A stretch of 526 nt of DNA from a phage, in sequence record EF517083.1, one strand, 5' to 3'. This document shows, in pieces, positions 241 through 526 of the stretch. Below the pieces are notes generated by a model. That model made no database searches. It was not told where the DNA came from and saw nothing but the letters and a program-made list of their open reading frames with translations. How positions within the stretch are numbered: the stretch's first letter is position 1; every line of letters starts with the position of its first letter. Position numbers and translations under genes: made by a program.

Positions 241-247
241 AGGAGGT
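241..247 (+). promoter_or_regulatory. Shine-Dalgarno sequence (AGGAGGT) for the downstream HNH endonuclease ORF
   Basis: AGGAGGT at 241-247 is a near-perfect complement to the 16S rRNA 3' end. It sits 4-5 nt upstream of GTG at 252 and 2 nt after the upstream TAA stop, an arrangement typical of coupled phage genes. Confidence 0.6.
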
Positions 248-251
248 TATC

Positions 252-526
252 GTGGAAAACTGCATTGAATGGACCGGAGGTGTCAACTCTAAGGGTTATG
301 GTCGTAAGTGAGTTAATGGTAAACTTGTGACTCCACATAGGCACATCTATGAGGAGACATATGGTCCAGTTCCAACAGGAATTGTGGTGATGCATATCTG
401 CGATAACCCTAGGTGCTATAACATAAAGCACCTTACGCTTGGAACTCCAAAGGATAATTCCAAGGACATGGTTACCAAAGGTAGACAGGCTAAAAGAGAG
501 GAACTAAGCAAGAAACTTATAGAATC
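252..526 (+). CDS. HNH_3-family homing-endonuclease-like gene (T7 gene 7.7-like?), 3'-partial, interrupted by an in-frame TGA at 309-311. Either a disrupted gene or one needing UGA readthrough.
   Basis: Frame 3 from GTG 252 gives VENCIEWTGGVNSKGYGRK-[TGA]-VNGKLVTPHRHIYEETYGPVPTGIVVMHICDNPRCYNIKHLTLGTPKDNSKDMVTKGRQAKREELSKKLIE, running off the window. This matches the HNH_3 signature: C-x-EW-x-G, GYGR, HR-x-x-YE, G-x-(I/V)P-x-G, H-x-CDN-x-x-C-x-N, HL-x-x-GT-x-x-N-x-x-D. The match spans both sides of the TGA in one frame. Possible downstream restart codons are GTG 327 and ATG 390, both in frame. Confidence 0.6.

Follow-up and report, generated by a model that had tools for sequence, protein, structure and literature searches.

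The in-frame TGA codon at positions 309–311 of the window (the whole 526-base stretch of phage DNA analysed here) very probably marks an ordinary, mutagen-type knockout of gene 7.7 in a phage T7 derivative loaded with GC>AT changes. Much of this account is directly supported. The lesion is a point mutation whose direction is set by comparison with T7. It sits within a characteristic substitution spectrum that bears no mark of selection against amino acid changes. Gene 7.7 is dispensable, and the same class of lesion is present in known mutagenised T7 genomes. We infer both the origin, most likely a laboratory T7 line, and the mutagenic agent. The biological weight of the result is small; in a T7 derivative with a heavy mutation load, a dispensable selfish gene has presumably been knocked out by a Trp-to-opal change. 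The practical lesson for sequence interpretation is to examine the spectrum of nearby substitutions first whenever an in-frame TGA falls on a Trp codon.

Results

The window spans parts of T7 genes 7.3 and 7.7

The whole 526-base window aligns with positions 19597–20122 of phage T7 (NC_001604). The match is ungapped, with 97.9% identity and no insertion or deletion across the window. T7 is the best match and nothing closer was found among 50,697 phage records. Two genes are represented, both on the plus strand and both extending past the window edges. According to the T7 annotation, positions 1–238 are the 3′ part of gene 7.3, which encodes a tail/host-range protein; codons 22–99 (the last 78) are followed by a TAA stop at 236–238. 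A Shine-Dalgarno sequence for gene 7.7, AGGAGG, lies at 241–246 (plus strand) and is the same as in T7. Gene 7.7 itself, encoding an HNH endonuclease (NP_041994 in T7), occupies positions 252–526 of the plus strand, which hold the GTG start and the first 91 codons. The order of gene 7.3, Shine-Dalgarno sequence and GTG start is common to T7 and the window. Gene 7.7 is in its T7-type position, between gene 7.3 and gene 8, with gene 8 itself falling beyond the window end.

A single G>A change converts Trp20 of gp7.7 to an opal codon

The TGA at 309–311 (plus strand) is in frame with the GTG at 252 and corresponds to codon 20 of gp7.7. Translation of the gp7.7 frame gives VENCIEWTGGVNSKGYGRK*VNGKLVTPHRH and onwards. 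The original prediction had described this codon as an in-frame TGA one base away from TGG, and the ungapped T7 alignment confirms it. Codon 20 is TGG in T7 but TGA in the window; the window has A at position 311 where T7 has G at 19907, so that a single G>A (G19907A in T7 coordinates) produces W20opal. A point change, not a frameshift, had also been proposed, and the window contains no indel relative to T7. With the stop read as W, Pfam HNH_3 (PF13392) matches residues 29–70, at positions 336–461 of the plus strand, with a score of 51.3 bits against a cut-off of 24.8. This region includes the H-N-H sequence MHICDNPRCYNIKHL of T7 gene 7.7, which is intact in the window. All of it is downstream of the TGA. 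The stop follows residue 19 and is upstream of the entire Pfam-modelled catalytic domain; hence, the frame leading through that domain is broken at codon 20. Judged from its sequence, the locus appears to be a 7.7 allele in null or pseudogene form, with a presumed loss of function. A search for a sequence-related solved structure of the window-encoded protein found none.

The mutated residue was said to be a Trp conserved after a GYGR motif. This is correct among close T7-group orthologues only. Thus, W or TGG is found at codon 20 in T7, YpP-R, phiA1122, Bas102 and P0001–P0005. Codon 20 falls outside the Pfam HNH_3 model, and a ‘conserved Trp position of HNH_3’ consequently cannot be read from the model. 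We counted the residues at this column using an exhaustive HMMER search, which yielded 356 domain instances from the 150 best family representatives. Trp is not conserved at this breadth. The column is W in 35 of the 356 instances, and R, S, G and K are each as frequent or more so; family-wide, Trp accounts for about 11%. In the same 356 instances, the GYG motif just upstream of codon 20 is nearly invariant. Most of the best family representatives are 230–680 residues long and match gp7.7 in 2–5 separate stretches. These long representatives appear to consist of tandem gp7.7-like HNH modules within single predicted proteins.

Substitutions in the window run in one direction

Relative to T7, the window has 12 substitutions in 526 bases: nine G>A, two C>T and one A>T. 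Read from T7 to the window, every one of the 11 transitions is GC>AT (P about 0.0005 for a random direction). Six of the changes are missense substitutions in gp7.3 (R25H at position 12, G42D at 63, E48V at 81, S86F at 195, A90T at 206 and G95D at 222, plus strand). Besides W20opal, the first 91 codons of gp7.7 contain four missense changes (D3N, 258 G>A; E71K, 462 G>A; G82R, 495 G>A; T90I, 520 C>T; plus strand) and one synonymous change (E91E, 524 G>A, plus strand). Hence, 11 of the 12 substitutions alter a protein and E91E is the sole silent change in the window. Among the transitions, 10 of 11 are non-synonymous, compared with 76% expected for unselected GC>AT hits (P=0.22). Purifying selection has therefore left no sign. 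Between positions 259 and 461 the sequence is the same as wild-type T7 save for position 311. A purine precedes the mutated G at eight of 11 sites, against a baseline of 56%, an excess that does not reach significance in the window by itself (P=0.21); the TGA site is a G preceded by G.

The natural relatives YpP-R, phiA1122 and Bas102 have differences from T7 that run in both directions, and at nearly all 12 sites their base is that of T7. An A is found at site 63 in phiA1122 and at site 258 in Bas102, in places where the alignments are gapped or divergent. The full set of 12 changes occurs in none of the genomes compared. Searches of viral, metagenome and genome contigs found neither the exact 36-mer around the TGA nor a 39-mer with three lineage-specific changes, and plasmids and complete E. 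coli genomes were likewise negative by megablast. A protein search with the gp7.3 fragment of the window found nothing closer than 91%, and members of the T7 protein clusters do not carry the window's substitutions. By sequence, then, the window is best described as derived, with a one-directional mutation load, and not as a case of ordinary divergence. Ordinary natural divergence was discounted on the direction of the changes together with the non-synonymous excess. Two further sources were considered and rejected: bisulfite-type conversion, as only about 4% of G and C positions are altered, and targeted base editing, as the changes are scattered over all 526 bases.

A gp7.7 variant (P0283; WP_425323272.1) also has T90I. 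It is encoded by a 39-kb T7-like contig that is labelled Escherichia coli and looks like a phage filed under a bacterial name. Codon 82 is altered in this variant too, as G82V, whereas the window has G82R. Variation thus appears to be free in the linker that follows the HNH core.

Mutagenised T7 isolates carry the same class of lesion

T7 isolates K, K115, P and P82 are deposited in GenBank, as is their wild-type ancestor, AY264774. We take these four isolates to be the nitrosoguanidine-mutagenised, bottlenecked lines of Bull et al. 2003. Isolates K (AY264775) and P (AY264777) were compared directly with the ancestor. K has 417 substitutions, of which 196 are G>A and 191 are C>T; P has 307, with 127 G>A and 159 C>T. 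The GC>AT share is therefore 387/417 in K and 286/307 in P, or about 93%. K has acquired three nonsense mutations (genes 4.7, 5.7 and 5.9) and P has acquired two (genes 0.4 and 4.2). All five are TGG>TGA and all five are in non-essential genes, which the depositors labelled ‘similar to gene ...’ and not as CDS.

These genomes resemble the window in several respects. Their changes are almost exclusively GC>AT, and missense changes are numerous in both 7.3 and 7.7. For isolate K the counts are five missense and no silent changes in gp7.3, and five missense and two silent changes in gp7.7. Substitution density is about 1% genome-wide and up to 2.5% locally. As in the window, each nonsense mutation is a TGG>TGA in a non-essential gene. 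The Trp-to-opal lesion is thus of an already documented kind, the same class having arisen five times in K and P. There are also differences. The window shares no substitution site with either isolate and hence represents an independent lineage. Gene 7.7 stays open in both K and P. In addition, the window is denser, with 12 substitutions compared with nine in the same 526-bp interval of K. Across isolate K, 526-bp windows have a mean of 5.4 substitutions and a maximum of 13.

The choice of stop codon can be understood from the sequence preference of the mutagen. In isolate K, 3.84% of G residues preceded by G were mutated, compared with 0.69% of those preceded by T. The overall preference for a purine before the mutated G has an odds ratio of 4.0 (P=5e-33). 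On the basis of these mutabilities, TGG>TGA is about 5.6-fold likelier than TGG>TAG. The 5′-G preference accounts for all six nonsense mutations (window, K and P) being opal, and leakiness of the codon need not be invoked. Six hits in the window's share of gene 7.7 would include one or more nonsense mutations about 20% of the time. The 5′-G rule is also a simple predictor of which stop codon such mutagenesis creates.

Gene 7.7 is dispensable

The engineered T7 clones MZ375289 and OL964749 are viable and have no gene 7.7; gene 8 directly follows 7.3. Similarly, a T7 Δ2.8 Δ7.7 Δ3.8 phage forms plaques in numbers similar to those of the wild type (bioRxiv 10.1101/2025.09.07.674715). Hence, gene 7.7 is dispensable. 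The 7.7 stop codon overlaps the start of gene 8 in T7 as TAATG (20238–20242), and with early termination in 7.7 translational coupling to gene 8 may be lost. The deletion clones indicate that losing this coupling is not lethal. Between the premature stop and gene 8, the portal gene, about 330 nt go untranslated.

Discussion

Origin of the TGA codon

We propose the following sequence of events. A T7 derivative would have gathered dense GC>AT transitions under little purifying selection, the pattern left by alkylating or deaminating mutagens and seen in laboratory T7 lines treated with nitrosoguanidine. In the non-essential gene 7.7, one of these hits would have turned the TGG of Trp20 into TGA. 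With only 19 residues translated, the product would lack both the HNH catalytic domain and the C-terminal part, and the gene would be knocked out. The dispensability of 7.7 would let the phage tolerate the TGA. If basal reading of UGA by near-cognate tRNA-Trp yielded any full-length protein, the amount would be an incidental trace, with no designed level of expression behind it. Among the explanations offered in the original prediction, a fresh nonsense mutation in a dispensable selfish gene is the one that fits, with TGG in the relatives and viable T7 lacking 7.7. The density of changes counts against the proposal. Twelve substitutions in 526 bases are at the upper tail of isolate K densities, since only 1.6% of K windows have 12 or more. 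The window density is also about four times that of the Springman 2010 population, which reportedly has 245 mutations per genome. Moreover, six missense changes in the essential gene 7.3 raise a question about the viability of the genome.

Another explanation is that the TGA, together with the other GC>AT differences, reflects cytosine-deamination damage, a low-coverage consensus or another sequencing or processing error. Deamination damage yields precisely C>T and G>A, none of these variants turned up in a second sequence in the collections searched, and 11 of 12 changes are protein-altering, as noise would give. However, plaque-derived T7 genomes have the same spectrum and local density, 12 would be an extreme number of errors for 526 bases of assembled consensus, and one change is an A>T transversion in the gp7.3 E48 codon, which is also altered in isolate K. 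We therefore regard an artefact as unlikely. Alternatively, a selfish homing endonuclease gene might have decayed naturally to a pseudogene in a wild T7-like phage. T7-like phages often lose their free-standing HNH genes or carry them in degraded form, and many relatives match just the 7.3 part of the window. Yet the divergence seen here is one-directional GC>AT and nearly all non-synonymous, even in the essential gene 7.3, and in this it is unlike the natural relatives. We consider a natural origin of this type very improbable.

The remaining explanations assign a function to the TGA. E. coli tRNA-Trp is a near-cognate reader of UGA, and readthrough would insert Trp. Low-level misreading of this kind, in the style of Qbeta A1, would restore the wild-type residue and supply a reduced dose of functional endonuclease. 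The frame is intact downstream of the TGA, and six out of six nonsense mutations in the mutagenised T7 material are opal, none being amber. Conversely, the opal bias is accounted for by the 5′-G preference of the mutagen, and a stop at codon 20 is absent from every relative examined (T7, YpP-R, phiA1122, Bas102 and P0001–P0005). The context of the TGA is still that of wild-type T7, and hence no surrounding sequence has adapted to the stop. The base after the TGA is G, and UGA followed by G is a relatively efficient termination context in E. coli. Predicted RNA folding of positions 300–400 was no better than that of shuffled sequence (z=−0.35), and the window had no Rfam match at E<=1. Three of the missense changes in gp7.7 (E71K, G82R and T90I) lie downstream of the stop within the window, and D3N lies upstream. 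Finally, gene 7.7 is dispensable in any case. Like Qbeta A1, the window has a UGA readable by tRNA-Trp and an open frame downstream. Unlike Qbeta A1, its stop has no counterpart in the relatives examined and no stimulatory context, and it interrupts a pre-existing gene instead of forming a boundary between two functional modules. Nor is the extended product required by the phage. Thus, with relatives that lack the stop, wild-type flanks and no stimulatory element, the proposal of an attenuated gene expressed by UGA readthrough finds no support, and we judge it highly unlikely. Much the same low probability attaches to a hypomorphic allele maintained by selection, in which trace readthrough or initiation at Met47 would preserve a nuclease-independent DNA-binding role. 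A candidate internal restart occurs at positions 377–392 (plus strand), where AGGA (377–380) is followed after 9 nt by an in-frame ATG (Met47) at 390; wild-type T7 has the same arrangement. Initiation at Met47 would, speculatively, give a protein that keeps the H-N-H core along with the C-terminal region. In a recent preprint, a role of this nuclease-independent kind, the masking of DNA ends from the GAPS4 defence system, is proposed for other phage homing endonucleases. If a hypomorph of this type were real, the opal allele would be kept by selection and would not be debris. Least credible of all is the notion, also raised in the original prediction, that TGA encodes Trp in this phage-host system, through reassignment or genome-wide suppression. 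The stop does fall exactly on a Trp codon of the orthologues. However, TGA terminates 17 of the 51 genes in the T7 backbone, including 4A, 5, 9 and 19, no tRNA gene was found within the 526-base window, and the hosts of matching phage records are enterobacteria that use the standard code, such as Escherichia coli and Yersinia. Furthermore, with this spectrum of mutation, nonsense codons arise most often by TGG>TGA. One-directional, mostly non-synonymous GC>AT changes in a run are a mark of mutagenesis or damage, not of recoding.

Parallel changes in gp7.3

Should the full genome be recovered, it would provide a third heavily mutated T7 lineage in which to study mutation load and parallel changes at gp7.3 codons 48 and 95. 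These codons, at positions 79–81 and 221–223 of the window, are altered both in the window and in the independent isolate K. E48 is Val in the window and Lys in K (T7 19676); G95 is Asp in the window and Ser in K (T7 19817). The probability that both K codons would coincide with the six of 79 that are altered in the window is about 0.005. The coincidence suggests that gp7.3, the tail protein, has hot spots of mutation or was under parallel selection. The A>T at position 81 (E48V) is the sole change in the window that is not GC>AT, and it occurs at a codon also altered in K. E48V may be a selected change and not a mutagen hit.
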